Below the pieces are notes generated by a model. It saw only the letters and a list, made by a program, of their open reading frames with translations. It was not told the DNA's origin and ran no database searches. Source: a virus (taxonomy: Duplodnaviria; Caudoviricetes). From it: DNA of 64,000 nt. Of the stretch, positions 38,591-61,487 are shown piece by piece. The number at the start of each line of letters is the position of its first letter. Position 1 is the first letter of the stretch. Made by a program: the position numbers and the translations under genes. The DNA lies in the IMG/VR virus record IMGVR_UViG_2522572160_000003; one strand, 5' to 3'.

Positions 38591-38602
38591 CTTTTCCCGC
38601 TC

Positions 38603-40308: not shown

Positions 40309-40319
40309 AAGCGATTATT

Positions 40320-40485: not shown

Positions 40486-40489
40486 TCAG

Positions 40490-40918: not shown

Positions 40919-41868
40919 TATCCGAACGCCTCGCTGATCAGGTAAGCCATGTCGGAGCACACGGCCTTTTCCACGATGCTGGTTTCGACCTCGATCACTT
41001 CGCCGCCGCCGCCGCGATCCTCATCCCGCCAGGTGCGGACTTTGTATCCCTGGGGCGCCGCCATCTGCTTCCAGACGAAAGACTTGCTCCAGGAGACGCC
41101 TTCCAGCTCCGCATTGGGATCAATGTAAGCCAGCACAATGGACTTGGGCCAGACGTAGCTGAAGCTGGCCGCCTGTTTTTTATTGGCCGTGTTGTATTTG
41201 GCCGCGCCGATGTGGATGTGTTCCACCCCGAAGATTTCCTTCATGACGTCGATGGTAACCTGGGCCGGTGCGCTGCTGGTGGCGCCGCCCTTGACGAAGT
41301 CCAAAAGCTGGGGATGGCGTTTAAGCACGTCGTATCCGGGCTTGCTCAGGATCATGGTGTTGGGTTCGTAAAAACAAGCGGACTTACCCGTATCGATCAC
41401 GCCGATGGGGTCGGAGTTATCGTAGTCGCTGAGCTGGCTCGTGCCGGAAAGGGTGATCTTGTATGCGGCGCCGAAATTGGCCGCCGTGGTGGCGAAGTTC
41501 TTCACCCGGATCTCGCGATCCAACAGGATGAGGTCCGTCACGGTTTCCGTGGTTTTGGTCCTGGGCCTTAAGGGCATGTCGGAGTTGGCCACCACGGAGT
41601 CCGGGAGAAAGCTCTTAAGGGCCTTATCGTTGCAGGAGTATTCCGCCTGAGACACGTTCCAATCCACTTCATTGGCGGAATCCTTGGGGCCGCGATCGGT
41701 CTTGGCCGGGGTGAAGCGATCCTTTTTGTCATAGACAAAATACTTGTCGCTTTTCTTGGGCACCAACACCATGGGACAAACCCCGTCCGCGATGAACTTT
41801 CTGTTTCTGTATTCCACGGCGACGTTGGATAATACCGAATCGACATGGACGTTTTGCACTGCTGGCAT
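40918..41868 (-). CDS. Major capsid protein
   Basis: HVD.VLSNVAV.YRN..FIAD..CP.V.V.KKSDKY, ILLDRE.RV and SDPI motifs. Confidence 0.85.
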   Translation of the reverse strand: MPAVQNVHVDSVLSNVAVEYRNRKFIADGVCPMVLVPKKSDKYFVYDKKDRFTPAKTDRGPKDSANEVDWNVSQAEYSCNDKALKSFLPDSVVANSDMPLRPRTKTTETVTDLILLDREIRVKNFATTAANFGAAYKITLSGTSQLSDYDNSDPIGVIDTGKSACFYEPNTMILSKPGYDVLKRHPQLLDFVKGGATSSAPAQVTIDVMKEIFGVEHIHIGAAKYNTANKKQAASFSYVWPKSIVLAYIDPNAELEGVSWSKSFVWKQMAAPQGYKVRTWRDEDRGGGGEVIEVETSIVEKAVCSDMAYLISEAFG

Positions 41869-41900
41869 AGTTCGCCTCCTTTTATTGGGTCAGTAGGTGG

Positions 41901-42308
41901 TTATTCTGCGTCAACGCCCAGGTAACGAGGCCCAAGCAGCTTGACTTCGATCAGGTCGCCGTCCGCCGTGGAGGGCTCCAGGGCGATGCAGAAATACTGC
42001 GCGTTGTCCGTGGTCACCTTGACGCCATGGTAGTTGCTGTTGGAGCCCAGGGGATCGCCTGCGGCGATGTTCACGCTGTTTCCGTCCACCACAAGCAGGC
42101 TGGTGCCTTCGGTCGCGATTTCGGCGACTTCGCCCTGGGCTTCGGGAGCGTTTTGCAAGACGCCCAGGACCGTGGTCCCGGCCGAAGAATCGCCGTAGTC
42201 GAACTCTTCGTCGCTTGCGATGGCGGCCGCGTGATACTGATTGTCGGAAAGATCCCGGGCCGCTGGCCTGCTTATGGTTCCTGCCGGTTTGGATTGTACG
42301 CCTGCCAT
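41901..42308 (-). CDS. Capsid cement/decoration protein (DUF2190-like)
   Basis: GVLQN.P..GE.A, IAAGD and GDLIEV.L motifs. Confidence 0.75.
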   Translation of the reverse strand: MAGVQSKPAGTISRPAARDLSDNQYHAAAIASDEEFDYGDSSAGTTVLGVLQNAPEAQGEVAEIATEGTSLLVVDGNSVNIAAGDPLGSNSNYHGVKVTTDNAQYFCIALEPSTADGDLIEVKLLGPRYLGVDAE

Positions 42309-42343
42309 AATTCACCTCCGTGTTTGCAAGTTTTAGGGCGGAC

Positions 42344-43522
42344 TTATTTGACCAGCCCGGGGTTTTCCTTGGCGACTTCCAGCAGGGCCTCGCTAAAGGA
42401 GATTCCATCTTCCTTGGCCCGCTTCCTGGCCATGGCCGCGATCTTTTCGTCATCGCCGCCCGGATGCACATCCTTGTCCGGCCCGGCGATTTCGGAGAAG
42501 TCGATGAGCTTGGGCAGATCCGCGAGAAACCCCTGGAACCAATCAGCCGGGGTTTGCTTGGCCTGGCCTTCGGCGAACTCGATCTCGGTTCCGGCGTCCA
42601 GCCCTTCCATGAATTCCTGGATGCCAGCGTCTTTCCATGCCGGGGCGATGGTTCCGTCCTTGATCCCGGCTTCCACAAATGCGGCGATTGCCTTTTTGCG
42701 GGTTTCCTTGGCCTCCTTGGCCTGTTGTTCCGCGAATTCCGCCTCCGCCTGTTCGCGGGCTTCCTTGGCCGCCTTGTCGGCCGCTTCCTTTCGGGCCTGG
42801 TTAATGTCCGCTTCCGAAAAGCTGACTGCGGTTCCTGCGGGTTCGCCTTCGGGCATGTCGTCAACCGCTTTGCCGAAAGCCTCTTTTACTTTGTCTTTCC
42901 AACTCATGGCCTTGCCTCCTGTGTTAGTGGGGTCTGAAAACATCGGTTCATCAAGAGGGGATGCAAGCACTTCCTCGATTTCCCATTCGGGAACGATGCC
43001 GTCTGCGGCGTCCTTGCCTTCCTTTTCGATGATCCATTCGCGCAATCTTCTAAAAATCCTTGCCAGGGACTTCATTTTGTACGAGTCGATCTCCTGGCCG
43101 AATTCAATGGTTATGGATTCCTGATCCCCGGAAAACTCGATATTTTTGAGCCCCTTGATTGCCGGGGGAACGGCGCCCAAAAAGCCCACGTGCTTTAAGG
43201 AGCCGTCCGGGTAAAAGGAAGCCGAGCGTTTTTTGTACAGGCCCTTTTCCACCAGGTCGGCGAACTCGGGCTGCACCTGGTTGAATGTCGCCTCCAGGAT
43301 CTTGGCTCCGTTTTTGTCCACAGCCCGCAGGGCGGACACCCAGCCGAAAGCCGGGGCGTTGGTCTTGGGATGCCCGCACACGATGGGCGGCTCGTGTTCG
43401 GCCAGGTCAAAAGAGGCCACGGCCTTTTCGATGAGCTTGTTCACGTCCTGCTCCCGGCCTTTGCTGTCCCGGTGAGTTCCCCCCCTGGCTATTTCCACCC
43501 AACCGCTTAATCCCTTTTTCAT
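42344..43522 (-). CDS. Prohead protease/scaffold (Mu I/Z-like)
   Basis: WVEI..GG, PIVCGHP...APAFGWV, YKKRSAS and HVGFLGA.PPAIKGL; C-terminal coiled coil. Confidence 0.85.
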   Translation of the reverse strand: MKKGLSGWVEIARGGTHRDSKGREQDVNKLIEKAVASFDLAEHEPPIVCGHPKTNAPAFGWVSALRAVDKNGAKILEATFNQVQPEFADLVEKGLYKKRSASFYPDGSLKHVGFLGAVPPAIKGLKNIEFSGDQESITIEFGQEIDSYKMKSLARIFRRLREWIIEKEGKDAADGIVPEWEIEEVLASPLDEPMFSDPTNTGGKAMSWKDKVKEAFGKAVDDMPEGEPAGTAVSFSEADINQARKEAADKAAKEAREQAEAEFAEQQAKEAKETRKKAIAAFVEAGIKDGTIAPAWKDAGIQEFMEGLDAGTEIEFAEGQAKQTPADWFQGFLADLPKLIDFSEIAGPDKDVHPGGDDEKIAAMARKRAKEDGISFSEALLEVAKENPGLVK

Positions 43523-43538
43523 GCCGCCTCTCCTTGCC

Positions 43539-43599
43539 CTCGTTCCCATGCTGTGCGTGGGAATGTTTTCATCTCGTTCCCATGCTGTGCGTGGGAATG
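43539..43599 (+). repeat. Tandem pair of 27-bp REP-like palindromes, family B
   Basis: CTCGTTCCCATGCTGTGCGTGGGAATG at 43539 and 43573. Confidence 0.85.
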
Positions 43600-43714
43600 C
43601 TTCCCGGCCCGCCTTATTTCGATTCTAAGCCCCCGCATCCTGAACCCGCCCTGTCATGCGGCCGGGCCTTGTTTAAAAAGACACGGGCGTTTTTAAACGT
43701 GTTCTGAAAGCCCT

Positions 43715-44245
43715 TTAAGCCTGCTCCAGGATGTCCACGAGCGACTCCCTGATTTCGCCCCAATCCTCGGGCTGCACCATCATGAACGGCCGGGCCGGGA
43801 TGTCGCCCCATGGCAGGGTTGTTTTCCTGTTGTGCGAACTCACCTTGACGCCGTCCCTGCGGGTGAACGATTTCACCCGGACAACCTTTTGCCCGAACTG
43901 TCCTTTCCTGGCGCCGAAATGGAGCGTGGCCGCCTTGATGCTGTTGGCCGAAAGCACCACCTTGTCCGGGAAGGCCTGGTAGGAAATGCTCCGCATGAGT
44001 TCCCCGGACCTGACCAGGATCTGGCCGGGCCATTTTTTTTCTGCAATGCGCCGGGAGATGGTGACGTCCGAAAGCCCCTGCCACGCTGGGCGGCCGCCGA
44101 CCTCGAAGTTCCGCAGAATGCTTGCGTGGACGATTTCGCCGATGACTTCCATGACCGGCGTCAGATCGCCCAGGCGCTGAAGCAGCTTGCCAAGCAGGCC
44201 AGCGACCTCCGCGTCATCCACGGATATGACCTGATTCACGCCCAT
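43715..44245 (-). CDS. Virion morphogenesis protein (Mu gpG-like)
   Basis: DLTPVM..IG, W..LS..T, IL..SG.L..SI, HFG and IPARPF motifs. Confidence 0.88.
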   Translation of the reverse strand: MGVNQVISVDDAEVAGLLGKLLQRLGDLTPVMEVIGEIVHASILRNFEVGGRPAWQGLSDVTISRRIAEKKWPGQILVRSGELMRSISYQAFPDKVVLSANSIKAATLHFGARKGQFGQKVVRVKSFTRRDGVKVSSHNRKTTLPWGDIPARPFMMVQPEDWGEIRESLVDILEQA

Positions 44246-46483
44246 TTACGCGGCCTCCTTGAAAGGCATGTTCGCCCATCCCGGATCGGGGATGAGATAC
44301 CGGGCGGGCATGGTGTGGCCGGTGGCCGGGTCCACGGGTTCGATCAGGGTGTTGGTGGGGTCCACCGTTTCGACCTTCCACTTGTTGCGGGCGATCTCCC
44401 GGGCGGACACAGCCACGACCGTGCAGCGGCAGTTAAAGCCGTTGGGCGGATACCACTTTTCCCAGACAGGGTGATCCCACCGGAATATCTTGCCGTGCAT
44501 GGCCGCGTGCTCCGGCCGGGAGCTTGCGTCCAGGACGGCCATATACCGCCAATAAGGCCGGGCCGCCTTCATGGCCGGGGTGGTCAACTGCCTAAACCGC
44601 CCGCCCTGATAGCTGACCTGCATGTTCGTGCGCCAGATGGTGTTCACCCGCCAGGGCCTCAATGCCTTGTAGCCCTTGCTTTCAAAAAGGGCCGGCATGG
44701 CCTTCATGAAATTTTCCAGGGTGGAGCCTTCCTCCATGGCCTTGAGGATTTCGGCCTTGACCATGGCCAGCAAATCGGCGCTGGCCACGCCCGCGATGCG
44801 GAAAGCCTTGTCCCGGAAGTAGTCCATGGCTTCCTTGAAAGGAGTCCCCGGCCCCCATTCCGCCTCGGAAAAATCGGCCTCGGATTCCACGGATTCAACG
44901 CCCAGGGCGTCGGCTTCCATCAGGGACGCGGCCAGGGCTTCGGCAATGGATGCGGAGTCCATGGACAGGGAGTCTATTTTGGCGGCCGCCTTCTTGAGGG
45001 AACCGGCCCCACGGACAAACCCGGAAATCTGCCCGAGCCAGGCTTCCATCAGGGACGCGGCTTCCTTCACGCGGGAATCCGCCCTGGCGTCCAGATCCCG
45101 CTGGAAACTTTCCTCCGACAACTCGATCACGGCCTCGGCGAATTCCGCGGCGCCGTTCTGTTTTTCGGCCTCCGCCATAATGCCTTGCATGGCTTCGGGC
45201 GTGATCAGCTCATCGCCGCCCGGCCTTGGCTCCAGGCCCAGGCGATCGCGGGCTTCGTTTTTGCTGATCGTGCCGTACTTGAAGTGGTACTCATACAAGG
45301 GGCTCTGGGCGTCCTTGGCGTTTTCGGGCCTGGGCAGGTTGTAGGTTTCGTACCAGTAATCGTCATCAACCCGGACGCCGATTTCCTTGGTCAGCGTCTT
45401 GTCCCGTTCGGCCAGGGCTTTCAAATCCTGCTCGGGCTCCACCCGGAACCACATCCGGGGATATTCGGTGACGCCGGAATAGTTGTAGTCCACCATCCAG
45501 GGGATGAGGCTTTCGTTCAGGCATTCGGCCAAAAGATCCGCGTCCGCCTTCAGGATGTCCTGGCGGACCGCTTCCTGGGAATCCTCATTGCCCAGCTTGC
45601 CGGGGGTGCCTTCGGTGGATGCGGTCTGGCCCAGGACCGCCTTGGAAATCTGCTTGTCCATGTATTCGCACACGGTTTCATACGTGACCTTGCCGCCCCG
45701 CTTGGCCTCCAGGAATTCCGCCGCCATGCCCTCCGGGATGGTGATGCAGGTTTCGTTTTGGATGGCGTCCAGGGTGGCAAGCAGCTTGTCCTTGGCGTCC
45801 TGGTCGGCGTTGGGCGGGTATTTGCCAACGGCCGTGGGCATGCCGAATTTTTCCAGGAAAACCATCCAGTATTTGATGCCGTGCTTTTTAAACCAGACGC
45901 TCCACCAGAGCTTTTGGCCCAGGCCCTTGCCGTAAGGCGAGTCGGAATCGCCGTAACAGAAAACCAGGAATTTGCGGTCGGGAACCGGCTCGCCGTCCAT
46001 CATGTTTTCCGGGGTGAGAAGCCGCAGCTCCCGTTCGTCGGTAAAGGCGAAGCGGCGCGGGTGCTTGCCGATGATCTTTTTCGGGAGCCATTTGCCGCCA
46101 CGGTTGGTCCACATGATTTCTCCCACGCGGAACCCGAAAAGCACGGCCTGCATCAACTCCTGGATGGCCTGGGTGAAGTTAAACCCGCCCAGGGCTTCCT
46201 GGACAAAGTCCGCTATTTCCTGGCCGCGTTCATCATCCGAGCCTGGCCTGACCTCAAGCTCGCACCCGGCAACGGCCAGGGCGCGGGTTTGCAAAACGCT
46301 GGAGGCGTGGGAGTCGCGGTCCACCTCATCGTACAGCCGGATGCCTTTGCCCCCCGCCTGGGTGCGCAAGACAGGGTCCGGGTTTTCCAAATGCCCGAAC
46401 CATCCCGCAAAAAGGTCGATGTCCTTTTTGATGGAGGCTACTTCATTTTTCTCGGGCTTTTTAGTGACTTGTTCCTCTGTCAT
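44246..46483 (-). CDS. Portal (Mu gp29/DUF935) fused to Mu gpF/gp30-like head morphogenesis domain
   Basis: N-terminal FLEKFGMP..VGKYP and ISKAVLGQT; C-terminal TIWRTN..SY..GR, AVLD..R..H and PPNGFNCRC. Confidence 0.88.
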   Translation of the reverse strand: MTEEQVTKKPEKNEVASIKKDIDLFAGWFGHLENPDPVLRTQAGGKGIRLYDEVDRDSHASSVLQTRALAVAGCELEVRPGSDDERGQEIADFVQEALGGFNFTQAIQELMQAVLFGFRVGEIMWTNRGGKWLPKKIIGKHPRRFAFTDERELRLLTPENMMDGEPVPDRKFLVFCYGDSDSPYGKGLGQKLWWSVWFKKHGIKYWMVFLEKFGMPTAVGKYPPNADQDAKDKLLATLDAIQNETCITIPEGMAAEFLEAKRGGKVTYETVCEYMDKQISKAVLGQTASTEGTPGKLGNEDSQEAVRQDILKADADLLAECLNESLIPWMVDYNYSGVTEYPRMWFRVEPEQDLKALAERDKTLTKEIGVRVDDDYWYETYNLPRPENAKDAQSPLYEYHFKYGTISKNEARDRLGLEPRPGGDELITPEAMQGIMAEAEKQNGAAEFAEAVIELSEESFQRDLDARADSRVKEAASLMEAWLGQISGFVRGAGSLKKAAAKIDSLSMDSASIAEALAASLMEADALGVESVESEADFSEAEWGPGTPFKEAMDYFRDKAFRIAGVASADLLAMVKAEILKAMEEGSTLENFMKAMPALFESKGYKALRPWRVNTIWRTNMQVSYQGGRFRQLTTPAMKAARPYWRYMAVLDASSRPEHAAMHGKIFRWDHPVWEKWYPPNGFNCRCTVVAVSAREIARNKWKVETVDPTNTLIEPVDPATGHTMPARYLIPDPGWANMPFKEAA

Positions 46484-46486
46484 GGT

Positions 46487-47998
46487 TTACCCCATAAACC
46501 CGTCCATGCGGGTGGATGCGCGTTTTTTGCCGGTGGAGTTGAAGTCGATTTCCACGCCGTCGATATTCTGGACGGCGTACCAGGCCATGCACCCGGCTAT
46601 GGCCGAATCCCCGTGGCGCTGCCCTCCGTCCGAGCCTTTCGTCCGGTAATCGTCCGGCACCTTGGCCACGCCTTTTCTCATCTTTACGGACCGATGATCC
46701 TCCAGGATGTCCGAGTCCCTGGGGATAAGGATTTCCTTGTCTTCAAAGGCCTTTTTGTATTTGGGCATGGTTTCCTGATACCAGCCCTGGGACGGACTAA
46801 CCATGTGGATGCGTGCGGAGCCGTAGCGCTGCATGGCCACTTCGGCCAGGTATTGGCCGTTGCCCCGTGAGTCCAGGGCGCCGCCCGTAAAACGCGGCAG
46901 CCTGTCCACGATGTAAAAAAGCACATGCCTTTGCTGCTCAAACGGGACGTTTCTCAAGTCCGCAACAAAGGGCGCGTGGTATTTCAGGCCGGGCTGTTCC
47001 TGTAATGGGAAGATGTCGGTCAAGTCGCCTGTCCGGCCGAAGTCCTCTCCAAAGTAGGTTTTCAAGTATGGGTCCAGCCGATCCAAATGCGGCTTAAGGT
47101 TTTCCTCGCACCATTCCCTTGCCGCCTTTTCCCGGACGAATTCATGCTCGTGGACGAAAGAGTCCTTGCACTTCCAGCGATAAACCGGGATGTCCGGGCT
47201 CATGCACGAAAGGACCAAAGTCCGGGCCAGGTAGATATCCGCGCCATGGGCCGGGATCACGAACAATTCCTCGTCTGCGTCGTCGCCGTAATTGTCCACA
47301 ACGTCCTTGCGCCAGGCGTCCTGGCCTTCCTGGGTCCATTCGATGCCGCGCCGCAGGCAAACGCGGCCGTAAAGTCCGTCCGCCAAGGCGTCGTCAAATG
47401 TGGTGGTGTGGAGGGAATAAGGCTTTTTCCCCGCCTTGATAGCCTCGATCAACTCGTTGAATGGGTTGTCCACGCCGTTATGGGTGGAAATGATAACCAC
47501 GCGGCCGCCCCAAATCAGCATGGCCATGGCGGCCTTGATAAGCCCGGCCAGGTCGTCGTGAAAGGCCGCCTCGTCTATAACGATCTTCCCCTGCTTGCCG
47601 CGCAGGTTGGCGGGCCTGGAGGATAAGGCGACAATCTTGTGCCCGGAATGAAACCGGATGCGAAAGGCCAGGATGCTTTTCTTTTCGTCGGCTTCGTCGT
47701 CAAACAGGAATTCCTCAATCTCCCCGGCCGCCTCGTTGTAAAACCGCGCCCAATCCGCGCAATCCTCTATGAACTCCTGGGCCATGTCCTTGTTGTAGCC
47801 GATGTAAAACACGTCCATGCCATTCTCGGAAGCGGCAAGGAGGGTGTCTTCTCCGGCTTCGCCCCAGGAGGCGCCGATCCGCCTGGATTTCTCCCACAGT
47901 TTGACCTGGGCCTGATCCTTGGCCCATTCTTGCTGGTAGCCAAGAAACACAGCCGGAGTGCGGTGGGAGCGGTCTTCTTTTCCAGGGTGGCCTTTCAT
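46487..47998 (-). CDS. Terminase large subunit (Mu gp28-like)
   Basis: EKSRRIGASW, LSSRPANLRG.QG, IDEAAFH, IISTHNG and HGDSA motifs. Confidence 0.93.
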   Translation of the reverse strand: MKGHPGKEDRSHRTPAVFLGYQQEWAKDQAQVKLWEKSRRIGASWGEAGEDTLLAASENGMDVFYIGYNKDMAQEFIEDCADWARFYNEAAGEIEEFLFDDEADEKKSILAFRIRFHSGHKIVALSSRPANLRGKQGKIVIDEAAFHDDLAGLIKAAMAMLIWGGRVVIISTHNGVDNPFNELIEAIKAGKKPYSLHTTTFDDALADGLYGRVCLRRGIEWTQEGQDAWRKDVVDNYGDDADEELFVIPAHGADIYLARTLVLSCMSPDIPVYRWKCKDSFVHEHEFVREKAAREWCEENLKPHLDRLDPYLKTYFGEDFGRTGDLTDIFPLQEQPGLKYHAPFVADLRNVPFEQQRHVLFYIVDRLPRFTGGALDSRGNGQYLAEVAMQRYGSARIHMVSPSQGWYQETMPKYKKAFEDKEILIPRDSDILEDHRSVKMRKGVAKVPDDYRTKGSDGGQRHGDSAIAGCMAWYAVQNIDGVEIDFNSTGKKRASTRMDGFMG

Positions 47999-48522
47999 CA
48001 GTTGGCAATCCCCAATATCTTGCGTTTGATTTTGTCGGCAGCGTCATCGGACAGGCCGCTCTTTTTCACGGCGTCCGCCACTTCGCCAGCCACCTTTTTG
48101 ACCCGGGCGGCCAGGTCGGCTTTCAACTTTTCCCGGGCCACGGAAGAGGCTTGCAGCTTGGCCACGTCCGAAATCAGCCGGGGAATCTCCAAAATGTCCG
48201 CCTCCCCGGAAACCAGCCCGGCCATGACCTTTTGCAGCATCATCTTGGAGGTGGCTTCCTCCAAGGTCAGGCCTTCGCCCACCTCGGACTTCAAGGCCTG
48301 GGCCTGGTCTTCAAACTGTTTGACGGCCTGATAAGCCTCGAAAAACGTCTTGCCGTACCGGCCCATGGACGAACGGCTGATGTCATGGCCGCGATCCTTG
48401 CAATACTGGCAGGCTTCCTCGTAGGTGGCCCCTTCCAGGAGGATGCGGTGCAGTTCTTCCCGGAGATCCCGGGGAAGCTCCGTCTCGATCCGGGAGCGTT
48501 TCCTGATTTTGGCGTGGCCCAT
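47998..48522 (-). CDS. Terminase small subunit (Mu gp27/DUF3486-like)
   Basis: RS.IE..LP, ISRSSMGRY and GLSDD....IKRKILGI motifs. Confidence 0.85.
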   Translation of the reverse strand: MGHAKIRKRSRIETELPRDLREELHRILLEGATYEEACQYCKDRGHDISRSSMGRYGKTFFEAYQAVKQFEDQAQALKSEVGEGLTLEEATSKMMLQKVMAGLVSGEADILEIPRLISDVAKLQASSVAREKLKADLAARVKKVAGEVADAVKKSGLSDDAADKIKRKILGIAN

Positions 48523-48771
48523 TTATTCCAACTCACTTTCCAGGGCGGCGATCTTCCCGCAGGTTTCCAGGTATTCGGCTTTCAGGGAGGCGGCTTCCGA
48601 CAAATGAACGGCCGCGCCTTCAATGTCCAATTGCTCGATGGACGTCACCGTGCTGGCGGCCAGGGTGTTTTTGACGGCCCGCAAATTGGCCGCGATCCGG
48701 CCTGCAAGCTCAATCTTTTTGGGTTTCAGGTCGGCGATGTGTCCTTTGATGATGGCCCTTTGCGTATTCAT
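48523..48771 (-). CDS. Hypothetical coiled-coil protein
   Basis: Tightly coupled within the late operon. Confidence 0.65.
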   Translation of the reverse strand: MNTQRAIIKGHIADLKPKKIELAGRIAANLRAVKNTLAASTVTSIEQLDIEGAAVHLSEAASLKAEYLETCGKIAALESELE

Positions 48772-49082
48772 TGACCGGTCTCCTTTCTGACCATGGGGCA
48801 GAAGGTGTTGTTTTTGATGGCGTTCACCAGGTTGGTTTGGGCCTGGGTGTTCAGGTGGATGATTTCGGCCAGCTCGTTGGCCAGCTTCTGGTAATTGGTC
48901 ACAAGCTCCACGTTGTTTTCGTAGAACTTGGCCAGGGTGGCCATGTCGTTTTTGTACTCCGCCAAAATCCGTTCGGTGCGGCGCTGATCCACATACCAGA
49001 CGATAAAAATCAGGCCTGGCAGACCCAAAACGCTGGCGATCACCCCAATTGTCGAAGCCGGTATGGTTTCAAGGATTCCCAT
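48768..49082 (-). CDS. Small membrane protein (TM plus coiled coil), possibly lysis-associated
   Basis: GGAGG RBS; N-terminal TM LGLPGLIFIVWY. Confidence 0.6.
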   Translation of the reverse strand: MGILETIPASTIGVIASVLGLPGLIFIVWYVDQRRTERILAEYKNDMATLAKFYENNVELVTNYQKLANELAEIIHLNTQAQTNLVNAIKNNTFCPMVRKETGQ

Positions 49083-49301
49083 TTATCCTCCCGTGGTTTT
49101 ATGGAGCCGTTCGTATTCTTCCTGACAGTCAATGCATCTTTCACAGCCGGGTACGGCTTGCCGCCTGGCCAGGGGGATGGGGTCTCCGCAATCCCGGCAT
49201 GTTTCGTATGTGCGTATGCCCGGCCTTGTCCTTGCCGCCGCTATGGCCTGGCGGGTGAAATCTGCCTCTTTCTCTTGGGCCATGTCCGTGGCGTCTGGCA
49301 T
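49083..49301 (-). CDS. TraR/DksA C4 zinc-finger protein
   Basis: MPD..D.A...CRDCGDPIP.ARRQAVPGCERCIDCQ. Confidence 0.9.
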   Translation of the reverse strand: MPDATDMAQEKEADFTRQAIAAARTRPGIRTYETCRDCGDPIPLARRQAVPGCERCIDCQEEYERLHKTTGG

Positions 49302-49305
49302 GCGC

Positions 49306-49878
49306 TTATCCTTGGCCGCGTATGGCTGACACGACGCTGGACACAATGCCTGGCTTTGCCACTTCGCCAGCCTTGGCGCGTTTCTCCTTGCCGCGATCCC
49401 AGGTTGTGACGCCCAGGATCGCCCCGAAGGATAGCCATATCCAGTCCGGAACGTTCGGCACCTCGCAATGCGCCAGGGGTAAAATTACGTAAACAGCCAA
49501 GGCTGTGACTGGAAAACAGAAGCCGATAAAGGGCCGCCATGAGTATTGAATCCAATGCTCGGACTTCCCTTCTGTCCGCATAGTCGAGTTGACTTCCTGG
49601 ATAGTCGTCACACGTTCGGCCGATTCAATGCGGGCGTTTTCCACCACCAGCTTTTGGAGTTCCAGGGTGTTTTGTAGTTCCAGTTCCCGGAGCTTGAGAG
49701 CGGCTTCCGGGTCGGCGTTTATGGCGGCTTCCAGGGCCTCGGGATCGTCGGGATCTGTCCCGAACAGGGAGGCAACCAGGGTTCCAAGTGCTGCGCCTCC
49801 GGCCGGGCCTGCCACGGCTGTTCCGAGTAAGGGCGCTCCCACCTTGGCGATCGTCTTGCCAACTGATTTCCAATCCAT
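49306..49878 (-). CDS. Holin (3TM/GTA-type)
   Basis: Start re-called at MDWKSVG; E.KSEHW...SWRPFIG and ILGV..W.R..EK; next to the M23 gene. Confidence 0.75.
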   Translation of the reverse strand: MDWKSVGKTIAKVGAPLLGTAVAGPAGGAALGTLVASLFGTDPDDPEALEAAINADPEAALKLRELELQNTLELQKLVVENARIESAERVTTIQEVNSTMRTEGKSEHWIQYSWRPFIGFCFPVTALAVYVILPLAHCEVPNVPDWIWLSFGAILGVTTWDRGKEKRAKAGEVAKPGIVSSVVSAIRGQG

Positions 49879-49882
49879 GCGT

Positions 49883-50281
49883 TTATTCCCCCATGAACAA
49901 CGCCGGGTCGGCGTGCTCGATCTGCAAATGCACGTGGGGCTGCATGTCCGGGTGGTTGTACCGTTGGGTGATGTCCTGGGCCGTGCCGATGACTTCGCCC
50001 TGTTCAACGCGATCGCCAGGGCGTTCGGTGACGTCCACATAAAACATCTTGACCGCGACCTTATCGCCCTGGATAAGTACGCCGCTGTATGGCCCTTGGG
50101 CGTATGGCCTGGCCAGCCGGATAACGCGGCCTGTAATGGGGGAGACAACGTCCTGGCCGGGTTCACAAAGGAAGTCCATGCCTTCGTGGATGCGTCCGCC
50201 TCGGGAGGCTCCGTAAAAACCGGCGCCGGCCGCATCGCTTCTCATGCACTTTCCGGTGGGGCTGATGATGATTTTTTCCAT
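49883..50281 (-). CDS. M23 peptidase-fold putative endolysin, LECT2-like
   Basis: HEGMD (HxxxD) and HVH zinc motifs; first gene of the late operon, upstream of the holin. Confidence 0.8.
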   Translation of the reverse strand: MEKIIISPTGKCMRSDAAGAGFYGASRGGRIHEGMDFLCEPGQDVVSPITGRVIRLARPYAQGPYSGVLIQGDKVAVKMFYVDVTERPGDRVEQGEVIGTAQDITQRYNHPDMQPHVHLQIEHADPALFMGE

Positions 50282-50293
50282 ATCGTTTTCCCT

Positions 50294-50417
50294 CTCGTTC
50301 CCATGCTCCGCGTGGGAATGCATACGATTGTCCGTCATTCCCGAATGTCCCTATCGGGAACCCAGCGTCGTTGTATTTCTCCCTCCCCCTTGACGGGGGA
50401 GGGCCGGGGTGGGGGTG
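50294..50417 (+). repeat. Cluster of three different REP-like palindromes
   Basis: Family B at 50294-50321; GTCATTCCCGA...TCGGGAACCC at 50334-50363; CCCTCCCCCTTGACGGGGGAGGGCCGGGGTGGGGGTG at 50381-50417. Confidence 0.75.
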
Positions 50418-50651
50418 ATTCCCCGCGCCATTTAGCCGCCGGGCTTCCCGGCCTCCGTCGCTCCCTCCCCCACTGCCACGTTGAAGGGAGGGAGCTTTCG
50501 GATGGAGTGATACTGATGGCCTACTGCTATGGCCCGGCAAGTGGGGGCTTGCAGGGCAAATCATGGGGCCTACTTTATGGGAAATATAGAGGGGAAGTCG
50601 CGCCGGTTTGTCCGGGTTTGTCCGCTTAATTTGATAAGTTGTGAAAAACTT

Positions 50652-50969
50652 TTAGATATCGAACAGGGAGAGTTGCTGGGGTTGCTCCGCATTGATGCGG
50701 GCGTAGGTTTGGTTGCGGATGAGGTAGGCCACAAGCTCGTCGTGTCTGACGCGCTTATGACCTCCTGTCGAGTAGGTATCGATGCATTCCGGGTCCATGG
50801 GGGTGGTTTCGCTGGGTCCGGGTTCGTAGGTGTTTGCGCGGCGGCGGAAAGTCCGGTCGGATATGCCCAGGATGCGGCACACGTCGCCCGGAGTATAGGA
50901 CGGCTTGGCCGGGATCTTCGCGACATCAAGCATGCCCTTCAACTGCATTTCCGCCGTTTTAACGTCCAT
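50652..50969 (-). CDS. MerR/Xis-like HTH protein, candidate late-gene activator
   Basis: YTPGDVCRILGISDRTFRR and T.GGHKR motifs; last early/middle gene before the lysis operon. Confidence 0.6.
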   Translation of the reverse strand: MDVKTAEMQLKGMLDVAKIPAKPSYTPGDVCRILGISDRTFRRRANTYEPGPSETTPMDPECIDTYSTGGHKRVRHDELVAYLIRNQTYARINAEQPQQLSLFDI

Positions 50970-50980
50970 TTAAAACCTCT

Positions 50981-51448
50981 TTAAAACACGTATTCAACCA
51001 GCGCCAAGATCCCAAAGATTATTAAGACCGCAATAACCAGAATGCCCGGAACCGCCCACGTGTTGTCCGTAGGGGCAGGGTTTCCCTGCCCGTCTTTTGT
51101 AGCGGCGGGCCCCTGTGCCTGCCCCTCGTTCCCATGGTCCCCGTGGGAATGCATACCGGCGTCCATTCCATGGATTTCCCTCCATTTTTTTGACGCTTCC
51201 GGGCCGAAGCCTCTTTCCAGGCCGCGCTCCAAAATCTCTTGTTTCATGTAAACTGCCAGGTCCAGTACTTCCTGGTACGCATCCAAAAGGGCGTCCCGCC
51301 CGTTATGGGTGGTCAAAGGTTCGCCGTATTTTTTAATGCCAACCTGGATGCGCGCTTCCAGATCTTTAATCACTTCCGGCAATACCTCCACGCCCGGCCT
51401 TTCGCGGGTGGGCTTGGGTTGTCTGATTGCTGCTTTGCGTTCGCTCAT
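50981..51448 (-). CDS. Phage hypothetical protein (all-alpha, possibly MazG-like) with REP-derived linker and C-terminal TM
   Basis: R..VG.KKYG..L...NGRDAL.DAYQE.LD..VY; three palindromes in frame at 51069-51156. Confidence 0.55.
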   Translation of the reverse strand: MSERKAAIRQPKPTRERPGVEVLPEVIKDLEARIQVGIKKYGEPLTTHNGRDALLDAYQEVLDLAVYMKQEILERGLERGFGPEASKKWREIHGMDAGMHSHGDHGNEGQAQGPAATKDGQGNPAPTDNTWAVPGILVIAVLIIFGILALVEYVF

Positions 51449-52173
51449 TAGATGTTCCTCAATGATTTCTTTTCGGTGTAGTCCACGTCCAGCTCCAGGC
51501 ACAGCATGCCCAGCTCACGGCGGAAATCATGCCAATGGATGCGGCTTTCCCGTTCTTTGTCGTGGTTGATTTTGCCGACTTTGTAGTGATCCACATACTT
51601 GTGGGTGGCGCGGATCACGGCCAGAGCCTGGGCGGGGTCTATGACCGGCTCCAAGGATATCCAGGTTTTTATGCCCATGGCCTTGGCGGTTTTTATGGCC
51701 GCTATTCTGCTTTTCACCGTGGCTGCAAACGGCTCCCAACGGTTGACCGAGCCTTGCTTGATCCATACAAGGGAGGTTCCGAAAGAGCATTTGTCGTACC
51801 CTTTCAACAAATGGAAATCCTTGATCGCTCTTAGCCCGCCCTTGGTCAAAACCGTAAATCTTAATTTATGATGAATTAAGATTTTGATTGCTTCGCGGGT
51901 GGCTTCCCCGCCCATCCACGGGTAAGGATCGCCGATGAATGACAAAAGGATTTCTCGGTCGTCGCCTTTGGCTTCCACCCTGGCCGCGTCATGTTCCAGC
52001 CTTTCCAGGGCGTTCTTTTTCAGTTGGGCCGGTTGGTTGAATGCTTCGCGCGCCTTCCTGGTGGCGCCGGGGGCGTAGCAGTACAGACACCCGTGCGGGC
52101 ATGTCGTGTACAGGTTGCAGGCAAGAGGCGCGTATTCCCTGGCCGCCCCTTTTGGTTCGTAAATTATTTTCAT
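51448..52173 (-). CDS. Radical SAM protein (spore-photoproduct-lyase-like, phage type)
   Basis: CPHGCLYC (CxxxCxxC), DPY, VLTK and WISLEP motifs. Confidence 0.85.
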   Translation of the reverse strand: MKIIYEPKGAAREYAPLACNLYTTCPHGCLYCYAPGATRKAREAFNQPAQLKKNALERLEHDAARVEAKGDDREILLSFIGDPYPWMGGEATREAIKILIHHKLRFTVLTKGGLRAIKDFHLLKGYDKCSFGTSLVWIKQGSVNRWEPFAATVKSRIAAIKTAKAMGIKTWISLEPVIDPAQALAVIRATHKYVDHYKVGKINHDKERESRIHWHDFRRELGMLCLELDVDYTEKKSLRNI

Positions 52174-52691
52174 TTTTTCAGACCCTTTTTAAAGTCCTCA
52201 TAGATGCTTTTGCCGATGTCTTTGCTCAGGCTTTCGCCGTATCCTGCGGCGCGTGCTGCCTGGGCTGTGCCGTCGTTTTCGGCCTGGTTGCGTTCTTTTT
52301 CGATGATGACGGATTCCTCTTTGGCGATGGAGTAGGCGATGGCCCGCAGGTAGTTGTGTGAGTCGAGAGGAAGATCCGAGGGCGGCCTGGCAATCATGCG
52401 TTCGATGGCCCTGGCCCAGATTTCCGGGCGGTTTTGGAGCACCCGGTTGTTTTTCCATCCGATTTCAGCGGCCATGGCCAGGGAGTTTAATTCCTGGATC
52501 AGGCGGAGGGCCTTTTTCCATTGGAGTCCCCGGCCTGATGCAGGCCGGAAAAATCCCAGGTACGAAAGCGCCACGGGCGCCACGGCCTTGTTCATTTTGG
52601 CGACGATGCCCAGGCATTGCCGGGCGTCGGCGTCATTCTCCCACGCCTCCGCGCTATGGATTGCCCCGCATGACGGACAGACCATTTTCAT
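52170..52691 (-). CDS. Mu-like hypothetical protein with N-terminal CxxC
   Basis: MKMVCPSCGA..S.EA, YL..FRP..RGL.W and PL..HNYL motifs. Confidence 0.7.
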   Translation of the reverse strand: MKMVCPSCGAIHSAEAWENDADARQCLGIVAKMNKAVAPVALSYLGFFRPASGRGLQWKKALRLIQELNSLAMAAEIGWKNNRVLQNRPEIWARAIERMIARPPSDLPLDSHNYLRAIAYSIAKEESVIIEKERNQAENDGTAQAARAAGYGESLSKDIGKSIYEDFKKGLKK

Positions 52692-52693
52692 GC

Positions 52694-53071
52694 TCACCAC
52701 CTTATCAACACGCCCTCAAAGGGCAGGCCGTAGTTTTGACGGAAAAAATCGACAAACTTTTCGGTCAAGGGGAATCCATCATCCTGGGCCAGCTTGAAAG
52801 CGGCTTCTCCATTCAATTCCTTGCCGTCCAGGACCACGCTTTCATCCGTATTAATTCGGATCGGCTGCACAGACTGGCACACGGCCTCCCGAAGAAAGAT
52901 GCGTTTGCCAGGCTTATAAGGCCCGGTATACATGCGCAGGATGTCGCCCGGCTTGATGGGCCGTTTCCGTTCCTTGCGGATGGTTTGATTCTTTAGTTCC
53001 GCCTTGACCATTGGCGCGAACTGTTTTTTGAACCCGACCACATGCTTGATTTGTTTTTTCTGTCCCGTCAT
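52694..53071 (-). CDS. ASCH/PUA-like domain protein
   Basis: K.QTIR, PGD.L..YTG, LAQDDGF and F.G.LIRW motifs. Confidence 0.8.
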   Translation of the reverse strand: MTGQKKQIKHVVGFKKQFAPMVKAELKNQTIRKERKRPIKPGDILRMYTGPYKPGKRIFLREAVCQSVQPIRINTDESVVLDGKELNGEAAFKLAQDDGFPLTEKFVDFFRQNYGLPFEGVLIRW

Positions 53072-53074
53072 GAA

Positions 53075-53770
53075 TTACCCTCCAATCAGGTCTTGTTCGC
53101 CCTTGGAATTGACGCCGTGCCTCACGTACACCTGTGACCCGGCTTCGCTTCCGTCCATCATGGCCTGGACGTCGTGGATGCTGACATTATGCTTTTTGCG
53201 CGGCTTGGAATCGACCAGGGCGGGATATTTTTGATCCATATAAGCTGTGATCAGCCTGTCCTCTTCCTCGGTAAGCGGAGGCTTGGGCAGGTTTTTAAAA
53301 GCGGCAAGCACCCACATTTCAGACCAAAGATCCGCCCGCTTTGTTTTGGTGGCCCTTTTCAGGCGTTTGGGCAGGCTGGCCATGTAGGCTTTGCGCCCGG
53401 CGACCAGGCGGCGGCGGAGCACGTCAAAGGTGTAGGCGGCAATCTCGGGATTGGGCGTGCGGCCTATAAAGTCCACGGCGAATGTGTAGTTTCGCCCGTC
53501 CCATCCGGGCAGGGAAACCGTGGAGCAGCGGAACAGCGCCCTCACTTTGTCGATCAAAAAGCCAATGTGCCGTGGGGGATTGTTCGCCCCCTGGGCCTCC
53601 TGGGTTTTTTGCCCGCTGATGTCGGACATGGCCACTTCATCCATGGAGATGTTGTACTTTTCCATCATGGCCTGGGCGTGGCGCAATGCGGACGCCGCCT
53701 CGTTGACGTTGGAGCTCCGCCCCAAAGCCAGGCACTTTTTGATTTTTTCGATGATTTGAGAATGATCCAT
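53075..53770 (-). CDS. DUF2786-domain protein
   Basis: IIEKIKKCLAL..S.N.NEA..A...AQ.MM.KYNI. Confidence 0.85.
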   Translation of the reverse strand: MDHSQIIEKIKKCLALGRSSNVNEAASALRHAQAMMEKYNISMDEVAMSDISGQKTQEAQGANNPPRHIGFLIDKVRALFRCSTVSLPGWDGRNYTFAVDFIGRTPNPEIAAYTFDVLRRRLVAGRKAYMASLPKRLKRATKTKRADLWSEMWVLAAFKNLPKPPLTEEEDRLITAYMDQKYPALVDSKPRKKHNVSIHDVQAMMDGSEAGSQVYVRHGVNSKGEQDLIGG

Positions 53771-54225
53771 TACGCCTCCTTATCCCTTCCATGCCTTTGG
53801 GCGTCTTTCCGCAGGGCGGTTATAATCTTGTACAGGTCCTTGGTATCCACCCATGCGATGCGGTCCACCTTGCATATGCGTTTTGCCATGGAGTCCGCAT
53901 AGGCCCACGGCCTCCCGGCTTCGGCCAGATAGGCCTCGATCTTTTTAAGCTGCGCGGATCTGCTGGACTTCGAGTCCATGTTTTTGGGGCGGCCCGGGTA
54001 AGAGTTGCGTTTTTTGCGAGTCGCCTTGAATCCGCAGTTTGCCAGGTGCTCTAAAACGGCGCGAAAGCCGTTAGCGTCCAAGTCCTTGGAGCTTTTGACC
54101 TTCGCGACGTTATGCAGCATCTCGCGGTACGTTGTTTCATCCATGCCAAGCTGATCCTTGGCTATATGGATTTTCGCCAGTTGCTTTTTGCGCCATACGG
54201 CGTAGTTATTGGGCTGATTGGTCAT
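53770..54225 (-). CDS. gemA: GemA/gp16 (DUF1018) regulatory protein
   Basis: LAKIHIAK.QLGMDE.TYR.ML...SSKDL and W.YAD.MAKR motifs. Confidence 0.85.
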   Translation of the reverse strand: MTNQPNNYAVWRKKQLAKIHIAKDQLGMDETTYREMLHNVAKVKSSKDLDANGFRAVLEHLANCGFKATRKKRNSYPGRPKNMDSKSSRSAQLKKIEAYLAEAGRPWAYADSMAKRICKVDRIAWVDTKDLYKIITALRKDAQRHGRDKEA

Positions 54226-54506
54226 GCCGCTTTTGCCTCCTTGCGGATATTCCTGATTTTCGTGAGGTGCGGGCATTCCCCCAGGCGGACGCTCATGGGT
54301 ACGTCCAAGTGGCTTCGCAGGGCTTGCATCATGCGTTTGGCCGATGCTTTGCTTTCGTGGGTGCAATGGGGTTCGGTGCCGAATTGTTTTTTGAGTTCCT
54401 GCCTGATTTCGTAGCCGCCTTTTGTTTGCCAGTACCACCAGTCGCACAGCGGCACGGGTTCTTCGTCCATATCCTCGATGATTACGACGTGGCATTTTAA
54501 AGCCAT
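54222..54506 (-). CDS. Hypothetical protein
   Basis: Coupled within the early operon. Confidence 0.6.
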   Translation of the reverse strand: MALKCHVVIIEDMDEEPVPLCDWWYWQTKGGYEIRQELKKQFGTEPHCTHESKASAKRMMQALRSHLDVPMSVRLGECPHLTKIRNIRKEAKAA

Positions 54507-54509
54507 GAT

Positions 54510-54716
54510 TTAAACCTCCATCCGATAAAGCCATTTTCCGCCGTCACGACGGCAATGGATAACGCGGCCATTTTCCCGCAGCTCGGCCACAATGGAATTG
54601 ACCGCGCACACATTGGCCTGGGCTATGATTGCCATGGTGGAGAATTCCAGGCCCGAGGAAAGCAGGGCGTCCACCTTTTGAAGCCGTTCGCTTTTTTGTA
54701 TGTCTGCCGCGTTCAT
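54510..54716 (-). CDS. Small winged-helix protein
   Basis: S.RLQ.V..LL...STM.I...A.VCAVNS.VAELR.NG; GGAGG RBS. Confidence 0.65.
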   Translation of the reverse strand: MNAADIQKSERLQKVDALLSSGLEFSTMAIIAQANVCAVNSIVAELRENGRVIHCRRDGGKWLYRMEV

Positions 54717-54765
54717 TGCCGCCTCCGTTGGTTGGTAATGGCGGGCCTGGCAGCCCGCCTTCGGT

Positions 54766-55287
54766 TTACGCCGCCCTGTCCGTCAATTTGGTTTCGTCTG
54801 GCTCTATCCAGAACGTGTCTTTCTCCACGATCCGGGCGTCCACCATGGCCAGGCGTTCCTCGGGCCAATCCCGGAGAACGTCCTTGTTCACGGTTTCCTT
54901 GACGCGGATGCCTTCCGAAAAGCCCAGGGATTTCAATTTTTCAAGAATCGACGCCAGGGTCTTTTTGGGCTGGGCCTTGACTTCCTTGGAACGGCGAAAC
55001 CCGATGCTTCCAAAATCCAGATCCACCGAGCGCTTTTTAGCGAACAGGGAGTCCTTGTTCATTTCAGCATAGGCCAGGAGCCCGTTTTCAATGGCCTCCA
55101 TTTTTGTTTGCCACGGGGCGGCTGCGACCTCCGCGTCCGCTTTGGCCTGGTCGATGCGATCATTCATGTTCGCGTTGACGGCCTCGATCTCGCGTTTGAT
55201 GGCGGCGATTTCCCGCAGGGCTTCGTTTGCTTCTTTCAGATCGCGTACAGGGTACAAGCTGTTTTTGTTGGGTTTTTTCCTTGCCAT
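54766..55287 (-). CDS. gam: Host-nuclease inhibitor Gam
   Basis: EA..AL.EIA...R...K.SV.L.FG.IGFR and IRVKE.VNK motifs. Confidence 0.9.
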   Translation of the reverse strand: MARKKPNKNSLYPVRDLKEANEALREIAAIKREIEAVNANMNDRIDQAKADAEVAAAPWQTKMEAIENGLLAYAEMNKDSLFAKKRSVDLDFGSIGFRRSKEVKAQPKKTLASILEKLKSLGFSEGIRVKETVNKDVLRDWPEERLAMVDARIVEKDTFWIEPDETKLTDRAA

Positions 55288-55374
55288 TTAAACCTCCATT
55301 TCGTTTGCGCGTAGCGCCATTTTGAAGTTCTTTGCGGAGCTTTCTTTCAAGAAAGCGACTCGCCGAAGGCTCTT

Positions 55375-55806
55375 TTAAGCCGCCGCATTCCCGCGTTTCA
55401 GAGGCACTATCCTGGCGACGTTGGCGAACACATTAATGCCGTCGCCGTTTTTAAGAGCCTCTTCCATGGCCTGGGCTTTGGCGTCGTAAAAGTCAGAGCA
55501 GGCCGCATACTGTTCAAATGTGATACCCAGGCGCCTTCCATATTTACGGTCGACAAAGCGGTCCGCCTTTTTATCCAGGCATTCATACAGGCTGATTATC
55601 GCCCTGCGTTTGCGTCCGGCTGGCATGGGTTCCGGGAAGGTCCACACGCCCCCGCCTTGACTCGCAGGCCCTGTTATGCGCCATGTCATGGCGTCGGATA
55701 TAATGCTGTTGTTTTCCTCCTGGGCGCTCATAACCATGGATGCCGCAGCCACGCTCAGCGCCGCTACGATCCCGACCGCCGCTAATGTCAAAACTATTTC
55801 AATCAT
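55375..55806 (-). CDS. Hypothetical protein with N-terminal TM
   Basis: GGGGAG RBS; hydrophobic N-terminus. Confidence 0.55.
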   Translation of the reverse strand: MIEIVLTLAAVGIVAALSVAAASMVMSAQEENNSIISDAMTWRITGPASQGGGVWTFPEPMPAGRKRRAIISLYECLDKKADRFVDRKYGRRLGITFEQYAACSDFYDAKAQAMEEALKNGDGINVFANVARIVPLKRGNAAA

Positions 55807-55819
55807 CGTTTATCTCCCC

Positions 55820-55890
55820 ATTTAAAAAGTTTTTTGGAAAGGGGGTCCGGGGGAAAATCCTTTTGTTCACAAAAGGTTGTCCCCCGGCGC
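55820..55890. repeat. Palindromic element, family A
   Basis: AAAAAGTTTTTTGGAAAGGGGGTCCGGGGGAAAATCCTTTTGTTCACAAAAGGTTGTCCCCCGG. Confidence 0.85.
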
Positions 55891-55893
55891 TTT

Positions 55894-56196
55894 TTATGCT
55901 TGCCCGCATTCCCGGCAGGCGCGCCAAAGACGCGCCCTGACAGGGCTTGACGGGGCGAATGGTTTTTTCCGTTCGGCAGCGCACCGGGACAAAGGGATTT
56001 CTCCCAGGACCGGGCAGTCAACCGTTCCCGTGCCGTAAACCTCCGCCACCCGCTGCATGATTCCGTCCGCGTTTCCCCGGTATTTGCCTTTAAGCACCTG
56101 GTTGACTGCGGAGGGCGAGTATCCGATTTGACGGGCTACGGCGCTTTGTCCGTGGGCTTCCACGGCCTCGTTGAGCAATGCCATGTGATCAGTCAT
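55894..56196 (-). CDS. XRE-like HTH protein with C-terminal cysteines
   Basis: QSAVARQIGYSPSAVNQVLKGKY and V.CP.LG motifs. Confidence 0.8.
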   Translation of the reverse strand: MTDHMALLNEAVEAHGQSAVARQIGYSPSAVNQVLKGKYRGNADGIMQRVAEVYGTGTVDCPVLGEIPLSRCAAERKKPFAPSSPVRARLWRACRECGQA

Positions 56197-56524
56197 TATC
56201 CGCCTCCTTGGGCCTGCATTCCTTGGCCGTCAAGGGCTGGTCGCATTTGTCGCAATAGACCGGATGATTCGGGCCGTTATCCCTGACCAGGCGGTAATTC
56301 CTGGCGCTGCCCGGGCGGCCGCCCTTGTACTCCCCGACCTCCGCAACAAAGCCATGGATCAGCAATTGCCGCAGGTAGCGCTGGAGGTTGTTCAGCCCGG
56401 CTCCGGATGTGCGGCACAGATCCGGGATGGTAAAGCGGCGCAGGATGCGCATGCTTTGCCACGCCTTGGACCTGGCGTTTCCCTTGGTGCTTTTTCTACG
56501 CTGCATCCCTTTGACTCCCGGCAT
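56189..56524 (-). CDS. Winged-helix hypothetical protein
   Basis: AWQSMRILRRFT..DL and YRLVRDNGP; typical after transposase B in B3/BcepMu-like phages. Confidence 0.7.
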   Translation of the reverse strand: MPGVKGMQRRKSTKGNARSKAWQSMRILRRFTIPDLCRTSGAGLNNLQRYLRQLLIHGFVAEVGEYKGGRPGSARNYRLVRDNGPNHPVYCDKCDQPLTAKECRPKEADND

Positions 56525-57246
56525 TATTTCCCCCTCTTGGTAAAGTCGGGTTGATCGTAGAACAAAGGCCTGTCCCCCCAATGATCCATGGTCACAAGGC
56601 CCATGCCGTTGGTCTTGCCGAAGGTTTCCACCTTGCTTAGGGCCGTGGACATGCGGCCTATGTTGGCGCAGGCCTCCTTGTGGATGTAAGCCAGCAGGAC
56701 GTCATCGATGCCCACCTCGCACATGGTGTCCGCCAAAACGCGGGCGTCCGCCAGGTCGATGCCTTTAAACTCGATCCATTGGGTGATGCGCCTTGCAAAC
56801 CGGCCGTTTGTGCGGATTTTACGGGCCATAAGCTCCATGCCGATCAGGATCACCGGAGAGCCGGTCACGTCGTAAATGTCCCGCAAGGTGTCCACCATTT
56901 GAGGCTGGCGAAACAGGTAATCCGCCTCATCCACGAATATGGGCCGGGGTTCCTCCATCAGGGCCTGGGTGACGGTGTTGGCCATGGGGGCGATGCGGTA
57001 GAGCGGCTCGTATCCAAGCTCCACCATCAAGGCGCCCATCATGGTTGTGACTGTCCAGGAACTCATGGCCCGGACGAAAATCCCGTTCATGGCGTTGGTG
57101 GCGTAGGCCACGGTGGTGGACTTGCCCTCCCCGGGAATGCCGAAAAGCAGCCCCATGCCCTCAACGCCGAAAGGGCGGTCCCGCAGCTCGTGAACCGCCG
57201 CCAAAAACCGCCGCACATTCTTGGTCATTGCCATTTTGTGTTGCAT
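56524..57246 (-). CDS. Transposition ATPase (MuB-like, short form)
   Basis: GIPGEGKS, IFVDEAD, LRDIYD and ILIGM motifs. Confidence 0.88.
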   Translation of the reverse strand: MQHKMAMTKNVRRFLAAVHELRDRPFGVEGMGLLFGIPGEGKSTTVAYATNAMNGIFVRAMSSWTVTTMMGALMVELGYEPLYRIAPMANTVTQALMEEPRPIFVDEADYLFRQPQMVDTLRDIYDVTGSPVILIGMELMARKIRTNGRFARRITQWIEFKGIDLADARVLADTMCEVGIDDVLLAYIHKEACANIGRMSTALSKVETFGKTNGMGLVTMDHWGDRPLFYDQPDFTKRGK

Positions 57247-57336
57247 CTGATACCTCCTGTTTAGTGTTTAGTTTTTCCGGGGGAGCGCGTCCGCATAACG
57301 CCTTCCCCGGACCCTCTTTAGCCTCATGCCCCCTAT

Positions 57337-57400
57337 TTAAAGTTTTTTGGAAAGGGGGTTTGGGGGAAAATCCTTTTGTTCACAAAAGGTTTGCCCCCAA
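57337..57400. repeat. Palindromic element, family A
   Basis: AAAGTTTTTTGGAAAGGGGGTTTGGGGGAAAATCCTTTTGTTCACAAAAGGTTTGCCCCCAA. Confidence 0.85.
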
Positions 57401-57405
57401 GGTCT

Positions 57406-59733: not shown

Positions 59734-59742
59734 GGTTACCCC

Positions 59743-60414: not shown

Positions 60415-60461
60415 GGGTCACCCTCTATGTAAGAAGCCATTCCTTTTGGAGGTCAAAACCT

Positions 60462-60929: not shown

Positions 60930-60944
60930 CTTGCATATCCTTCA

Positions 60945-61448: not shown

Positions 61449-61487
61449 TGCTTAAACCCTCACAAGTTTGATAAGGTTCACAATACG

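Follow-up and report, generated by a model that had tools for sequence, protein, structure and literature searches.

A LECT2-type M23 peptidase gene, putatively encoding an endolysin, in the lysis cassette of a Mu-like prophage

M23 domains are established phage lysins. In classical M23 proteins, including LytM, lysostaphin, ShyA/MepM, StM23, the M23 domain of phage 2638A and LysTt72, the second catalytic histidine lies in a W-Y-x-H strand, and for LytM and lysostaphin this mid-domain histidine is considered essential; most of the classical M23 lysins carry additional wall-binding or other domains. In phage Mu (gene lys) and Mu-like phages, the first lysis gene, located ahead of the genes of the terminase subunits TerS and TerL, encodes a lysozyme of the glycosidase type.

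LECT2, which has been reported to lack enzymatic activity (PMC9662197, PMC8174566), is described in a review of the M23 family (PMC9662197) as the sole mammalian M23 protein and as having a degenerate fold. It is an animal protein that is secreted, has receptor-mediated functions and contains three disulfides; it consists of a single M23 domain of ~130 residues. Its N-terminal loop is said to block the groove, according to the passages on the LECT2 structure in PMC9662197, PMC8039541 and PMC8174566.

In the prophage described here, the place of the Mu lysozyme gene is taken by the gene of a single-domain protein of the M23 zinc peptidase type, unrelated to the Mu-type lysozymes in fold and chemistry. 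The window, that is, the whole analysed stretch of 64,000 nucleotides, contains a Mu-like transposable prophage with genes for Mu transposase, AAA ATPase (in the position of MuB), Gam and GemA, as well as genes for a virion morphogenesis protein, protease, major head protein, gp36, tape measure protein, tail proteins and D12 methylase. The lysis cassette is organized in the order M23 protein, three-transmembrane (3TM) holin, DksA-type zinc-finger protein, 104-aa membrane protein, 82-aa protein, TerS, TerL. The main features are as follows (L051 and L054 are syntenic viral contigs):

26744..63143, minus strand: Mu-like transposable prophage, approximate extent, ~36 kb
50290..50296, minus strand: Shine–Dalgarno-like GAGAGGG, 8 nt before the ATG at 50281
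49883..50281, minus strand: gene of LECT2-type M23 zinc peptidase, putative endolysin, 132 aa, then TAA
49306..49878, minus strand: gene of holin, 190 aa, GTA_holin_3TM (PF11351, 1.3e-9; phrog_3427 holin, 4.9e-8)
49083..49346, minus strand: gene of DksA/TraR-type zinc-finger protein, 87 aa, also present after the holin gene in L051 and L054
48768..49082, minus strand: gene of 104-aa protein (N-terminal membrane segment, helical tail), resembling an i-spanin in shape only
48523..48771, minus strand: gene of 82-aa protein between the lysis genes and TerS
47998..48522, minus strand: gene of terminase small subunit (phrog_426)
46487..47998, minus strand: gene of terminase large subunit, 57–62% identical to TerL of L051 and L054

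The 132-aa protein belongs to Peptidase_M23 (Pfam PF01551, E 6.4e-11, 42.7 bits against a gathering cut-off of 28.7), and the start of the holin gene lies 4 nt past its stop codon. No rival lysin was found when almost all ORFs of the prophage with at least 100 aa were scanned against Pfam or PHROG, and a six-frame genome search for Phage_lysozyme, SLT, Amidase_2 and Peptidase_M15_4 revealed none of them inside the prophage; the sole SLT of the contig is located at ~2787–3050 of the window, outside the prophage. The preliminary description, which had reported a 132-aa M23 protein directly upstream of a holin as the only muralytic candidate of the prophage, thus agrees with the ORF, the Pfam assignments, the 4-nt gap and the outcome of both kinds of search. 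No lipobox ORF for an o-spanin was found in 47900–50400, a negative result that weighs against the reading of the M23 protein as the endolysin.

Two longer in-frame starts, giving 146 and 151 aa, are available to the M23 ORF. The start giving 132 aa is preferred, because the sequence GAGAGGG lies 8 nt upstream of it and because the resulting N-terminus, M(I)ISPTG, is the start common to most relatives. The protein carries no export signal or signal peptide, and its release therefore depends on the holin.

In the middle region of the prophage, a gene for a radical SAM protein of 241 aa (51448–52173, minus strand) separates the early genes from the lysis cassette. A single ORF of 745 aa (44246–46483, minus strand) combines Portal_Mu with the Mu F-like head morphogenesis domain (Mu_F); portal and F are encoded by separate genes in Mu.

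Repeats are present near the lysis gene and elsewhere in the prophage. One copy of a palindromic repeat is located just before the M23 start:

50291..50325, no strand assigned: palindromic repeat CATTCCCACG-N5-CATGGGAACGAG, genome-wide and not phage-specific

Four copies are found in the prophage, at 43536–43604 (two in tandem before the protease gene), 50291–50325 and 51122–51156. The repeat occurs 67 times in the genome and not once in the reversed control, and is thus a dispersed repeat of the host, present in the prophage as well. The idea that the 35-nt repeat preceding the M23 and protease genes serves as a Mu C-type late promoter or an RNA element was rejected, since the core of the repeat is found 67 times genome-wide and its folding is no better than that of shuffled sequences. 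The promoter and terminator scan yielded nothing above chance. A second repeat family, CCCC-TATTTAAAGTTTTTTGG-GGGGG, 49–70 nt long, is represented at 55803–55885, 57316–57398 and 40398–40446, within gaps between early-region genes and ahead of the gp36 gene; these repeats may be terminators or regulatory sites.

Comparison with viral contigs identified by a holin-based search showed what occupies the position of the M23 gene in related phages. Nine contigs were obtained, four of which (L050, L051, L052 and L054) are syntenic and encode a homologous 3TM holin with 40–44% identity. TerL is common to the prophage and L050, L051 and L054 (37–62% identity); the DksA-like gene is also present in L051 and L054, TerS in L054, and a 176-aa early protein in L052. 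Immediately upstream of the holin gene, L050, L052 and L054 contain a gene for a GH108+PG_binding_3 protein (E 3e-22 to 8e-25), and L051 contains a gene for a GH24 Phage_lysozyme (8e-8). In these syntenic relatives the slot upstream of the holin holds the only lysozyme gene seen within the stretches fetched. Proteins of 157–159 aa encoded upstream of the holin in L047 and L048, and one gene further upstream in L049, have no Pfam match and were not counted as lysins. The prophage and its syntenic relatives thus have the same cassette, with the lysin exchanged; among the lines of evidence for the M23 protein as the predicted endolysin, this is the strongest.

LECT2-type genes occupy comparable surroundings in other phages. 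The genome of the cultured Salicola phage CGphi29, which is complete, encodes a LECT2-type protein with a Cys pair (66.8 bits to LECT2); it matched no classical M23 protein below E 0.005. It is the only protein with a peptidoglycan-hydrolase Pfam domain among 48 proteins scanned, namely, the unnamed proteins and four small or structural genes, and the annotation of the remaining 16 includes no lysin. Its gene is in the terminal part of the late operon, with an annotated Rz-like spanin gene three genes further on. In about 23 non-redundant IMG/VR loci, a gene for a small membrane protein adjoins the LECT2-type gene (within one gene on either side) in eight cases and lies within three genes of it in about 15. 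Two loci in a same-order genome have the order membrane protein, M23 protein, lipoprotein. In one locus of a same-order genome (L041:5083-7611, G145:C11), a 77-aa membrane protein is encoded upstream of the LECT2-type gene, while a lipoprotein and then a Peptidase_C92 protein (permuted papain-like amidase) are encoded downstream, with tail-fibre-like genes adjoining.

The prophage protein is of the LECT2 type rather than an ordinary M23 protein, LECT2 being its closest solved relative by sequence, by Foldseek and by VIA-align. Human LECT2 is the top sequence match in PDB (E 1.7e-16, 63.5 bits, residues 14–129 against 17–132), while the next-best M23 protein has E 1.8e-4 and 24.6 bits. With a profile of 56 family members, LECT2 scores 100.3 bits (7e-28) versus 37.5 bits for the best classical M23 protein. 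The AF2 model of the prophage protein (pLDDT 96.4) matches LECT2 (5B0H) in Foldseek with E 1e-9, TM 0.77 and 34% identity, and in VIA-align with Z 17.6 and rmsd 1.7 Å over 118 residues. The two proteins share the organization in a single domain, 32–34% identity, the HxGxD + HxH zinc site and the N-terminal loop R-x-D-x2-G-x-G-x5-R before HxGxD, and the mid-domain catalytic histidine is missing from both. In this loop, residues R14, D16, G19, G21 and R27 do not vary within the family and are shared by LECT2; R14 and D16 belong to the loop said to block the LECT2 groove. The prophage protein differs from LECT2 in its cytoplasmic location, the absence of the C-x4-C pair and the place of its gene in a lysis cassette.

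The zinc ligands of the prophage protein are H32, D36 and H118 (H32-E-G-M-D36 and H116-V-H118); H116, the first histidine of HxH, is not a metal ligand. The hallmark residues of the LECT2-type family, R14, D16, R27, R55, Y60, Y81 and Q102, are all present. Classical M23 proteins share with this family the fold (Z 9–14), the zinc ligands, the HxH motif and the arginine of FG-x-R before the first histidine; they differ in the W-Y-x-H strand, where the LECT2-type family is variable. In HMMER alignments, Tyr81 corresponds to the tyrosine of W-Y-x-H in LytM, LytU and lysostaphin, and the classical catalytic histidine (H260 of LytM) falls two residues further, at Asp83 in the prophage protein and Lys88 in LECT2. 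Among 213 family sequences, only 2 have a histidine there. The initial recognition of a LECT2 look-alike along the whole length is therefore borne out by the near full-length PDB alignment, in which the listed motifs are matched columns, and by the difference of 63.5 versus 24.6 bits that places the protein with LECT2 and not with ordinary M23 peptidases. The accompanying statement that a tyrosine replaces the catalytic histidine holds as regards the missing histidine, but not as regards the tyrosine, which pairs with that of W-Y-x-H.

Relatives of the prophage protein are numerous: when 1.84 billion cluster representatives (clusters at 50% identity) were searched exhaustively with HMMER, 1804 matched at E ≤ 1e-3, of which 801 reached E ≤ 1e-10, and almost all were 125–220 aa long. 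The family is mostly viral, and its nearest ESM Atlas clusters are 72–100% viral and named M23 metallopeptidase; in the sources, the members are annotated solely as “M23 family metallopeptidase”, no NCBIfam model fits the family and PHROG matches are weak. The gene was found in 4 of 401 sampled genomes of the phylum of the window and is absent from a genome of the same genus, a pattern that fits a mobile gene. A single-protein query for related loci in the genome-contig collection found none. A match in cyanophage P-RSM1 was set aside, being weak (32% identity) and located inside an 879-aa protein. Three longer members (P0185, P0203 and P0170) contain fused segments similar to PG_binding_3 or PG_binding_1 (E ~1e-3, below the Pfam cut-off), which lend weak support to the endolysin reading, as do the largely viral ESM Atlas clusters.

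In 214 members, the positions conserved in at least 95% are R14, D16, G19, G21, R27, H32, G34, D36, P48, Y60, Y81, H116 and H118, and LECT2 retains all 13. It departs from the family at 4 of the 13 positions conserved in 85–95%, where R55 is replaced by Gly, I98 by Leu and A101-Q102 by Leu-Leu. The zinc site is nearly invariant: H32 and H116 are present in 212 of 214 members each, and D36 and H118 in all 214.

A role of the prophage M23 protein as the endolysin is thus well supported, as far as comparative context can indicate it. The gene probably encodes the endolysin of an intact-looking Mu-like prophage, a LECT2-type M23 protein that would be released by the holin and would cut the wall. 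When the lytic cycle ends, the neighbouring 3TM holin would open the inner membrane, and the cytoplasmic M23 protein would reach the peptidoglycan, where it would most likely cut peptide cross-links, as other M23 DD-endopeptidases do. Zinc would be held by H32, D36 and H118, with H116 acting on the zinc-bound water. Because H116 is nearly invariant though not a metal ligand, and is accompanied by the three ligands, the site is better read as catalytic than as a structural zinc site. Since the second catalytic histidine is absent family-wide, another conserved residue would have to complete catalysis in its place, the candidates being R14, D16, R55 and Q102.

The missing mid-domain histidine, as it appears in the alignments, nevertheless speaks against the reading of the LECT2-type family as hydrolases, and in the literature searched, no assay of any phage or bacterial member of this subfamily was found. 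The protein might instead aid lysis without hydrolysis, in the manner of EnvC and NlpD, by binding peptidoglycan or over-activating host amidases; the reported inactivity of LECT2 (PMC9662197) points the same way, as does the EnvC LytM domain as the second-best structural match (Z 13.7). Such a role is unlikely. The degenerate LytM factors EnvC, NlpD and DipM resemble the LECT2-type family in the M23 fold, an incomplete catalytic set and Z of ~13, but these amidase activators have lost the zinc ligands, and regulators of the EnvC/NlpD type are described as devoid of them (PMC9662197), whereas the three ligands and H116 are each present in at least 212 of the 214 family members. The EnvC match is, moreover, no better than those of the active enzymes StM23 (Z 13.6) and ShyA (Z 13.0), and in CGphi29 the LECT2-type protein is the only one found with a domain of the muralytic type.

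With the protein read as a hydrolase, its place in lysis may still be weighed against that of an auxiliary wall enzyme, the true endolysin being an unrecognised protein encoded elsewhere in the prophage. In one viral locus (L031:6004-7285), the LECT2-type M23 gene is followed by genes of a T5-type L-Ala-D-Glu peptidase (1e-9 to PDB 2mxz), of the M15 type, and of a GTA_holin_3TM holin (7.7e-20). With two peptidoglycan peptidases, this locus indicates that the LECT2-type family can coexist with a second lysin, and the LECT2-type protein may be auxiliary there. Several prophage ORFs also have no family match; these, however, sit in the early or tail modules, the six-frame searches were negative for lysozyme, SLT, Amidase_2 and M15_4, and the same position in the syntenic relatives holds the only lysozyme gene of the stretches fetched, so that an auxiliary function is quite improbable for the prophage copy. 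A moron function apart from lysis, for example as an antibacterial effector against competitors, for which exported relatives in Flavobacterium, Bacteroidia and Verrucomicrobia might speak, is highly improbable for a protein with no export signal encoded 4 nt from a holin gene, in the place that lys has in a Mu-type late operon.

The family as a whole comprises both cytoplasmic and exported forms. An N-terminal hydrophobic segment is present in about a quarter of the members, and signal-peptide-bearing relatives were found in bacterial genomes of Flavobacterium, Bacteroidia and Verrucomicrobia. The C-x4-C pair (CDxxGCG), which matches Cys18-Cys23 of LECT2, occurs in 21 of 48 members with a hydrophobic leader and in 5 of 130 leaderless ones. 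The prophage protein has S15 and A20 at these positions; its C39 matches C42 of LECT2, the partner of which is not conserved. Exported members score slightly higher against LECT2 (69–76 bits), and a profile search with them retrieved bacterial and metagenomic proteins only. Owing to the enrichment of the Cys pair and the higher scores, LECT2 looks most like the exported branch, and its C-x4-C pair is shared with exported phage and bacterial members and with the protein of phage CGphi29.

A bearing of the prophage protein on the origin of LECT2 is plausible. Because the protein belongs to a large phage family, the features that make LECT2 look like a dead enzyme probably represent the standard architecture of a cell-wall enzyme of phages. 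A more specific scenario is put forward only tentatively and is itself rather doubtful: the two features read as degeneration of LECT2, namely, the lack of the catalytic histidine and the N-terminal loop above the groove, would be the ancestral, functional design of a large family of phage lysins with a one-histidine catalytic set, completed by R14/D16 or R55/Q102; LECT2 would derive, probably through horizontal transfer, from a bacterial or phage member that was exported and carried disulfides; and activity would have been lost only afterwards, by changes such as R55G and Q102L. A full-text literature search found no paper linking LECT2 to phage lysins or to horizontal transfer.

The peculiarities of LECT2 in sequence and structure are thus common to hundreds of phage and bacterial clusters, the proteins of which occur in endolysin positions and have a nearly invariant zinc site. 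Should these LECT2-type proteins prove inactive, phages would lyse cells with the aid of an M23 factor that is not a hydrolase, and this too would be new. Should they be active, M23 catalysis would not need the second histidine, and a class of compact single-domain lysins of ~130 residues for Gram-negative hosts would be at hand; LECT2 would then have a concrete microbial ancestry, and positions R55 and Q102 may explain its loss of activity.
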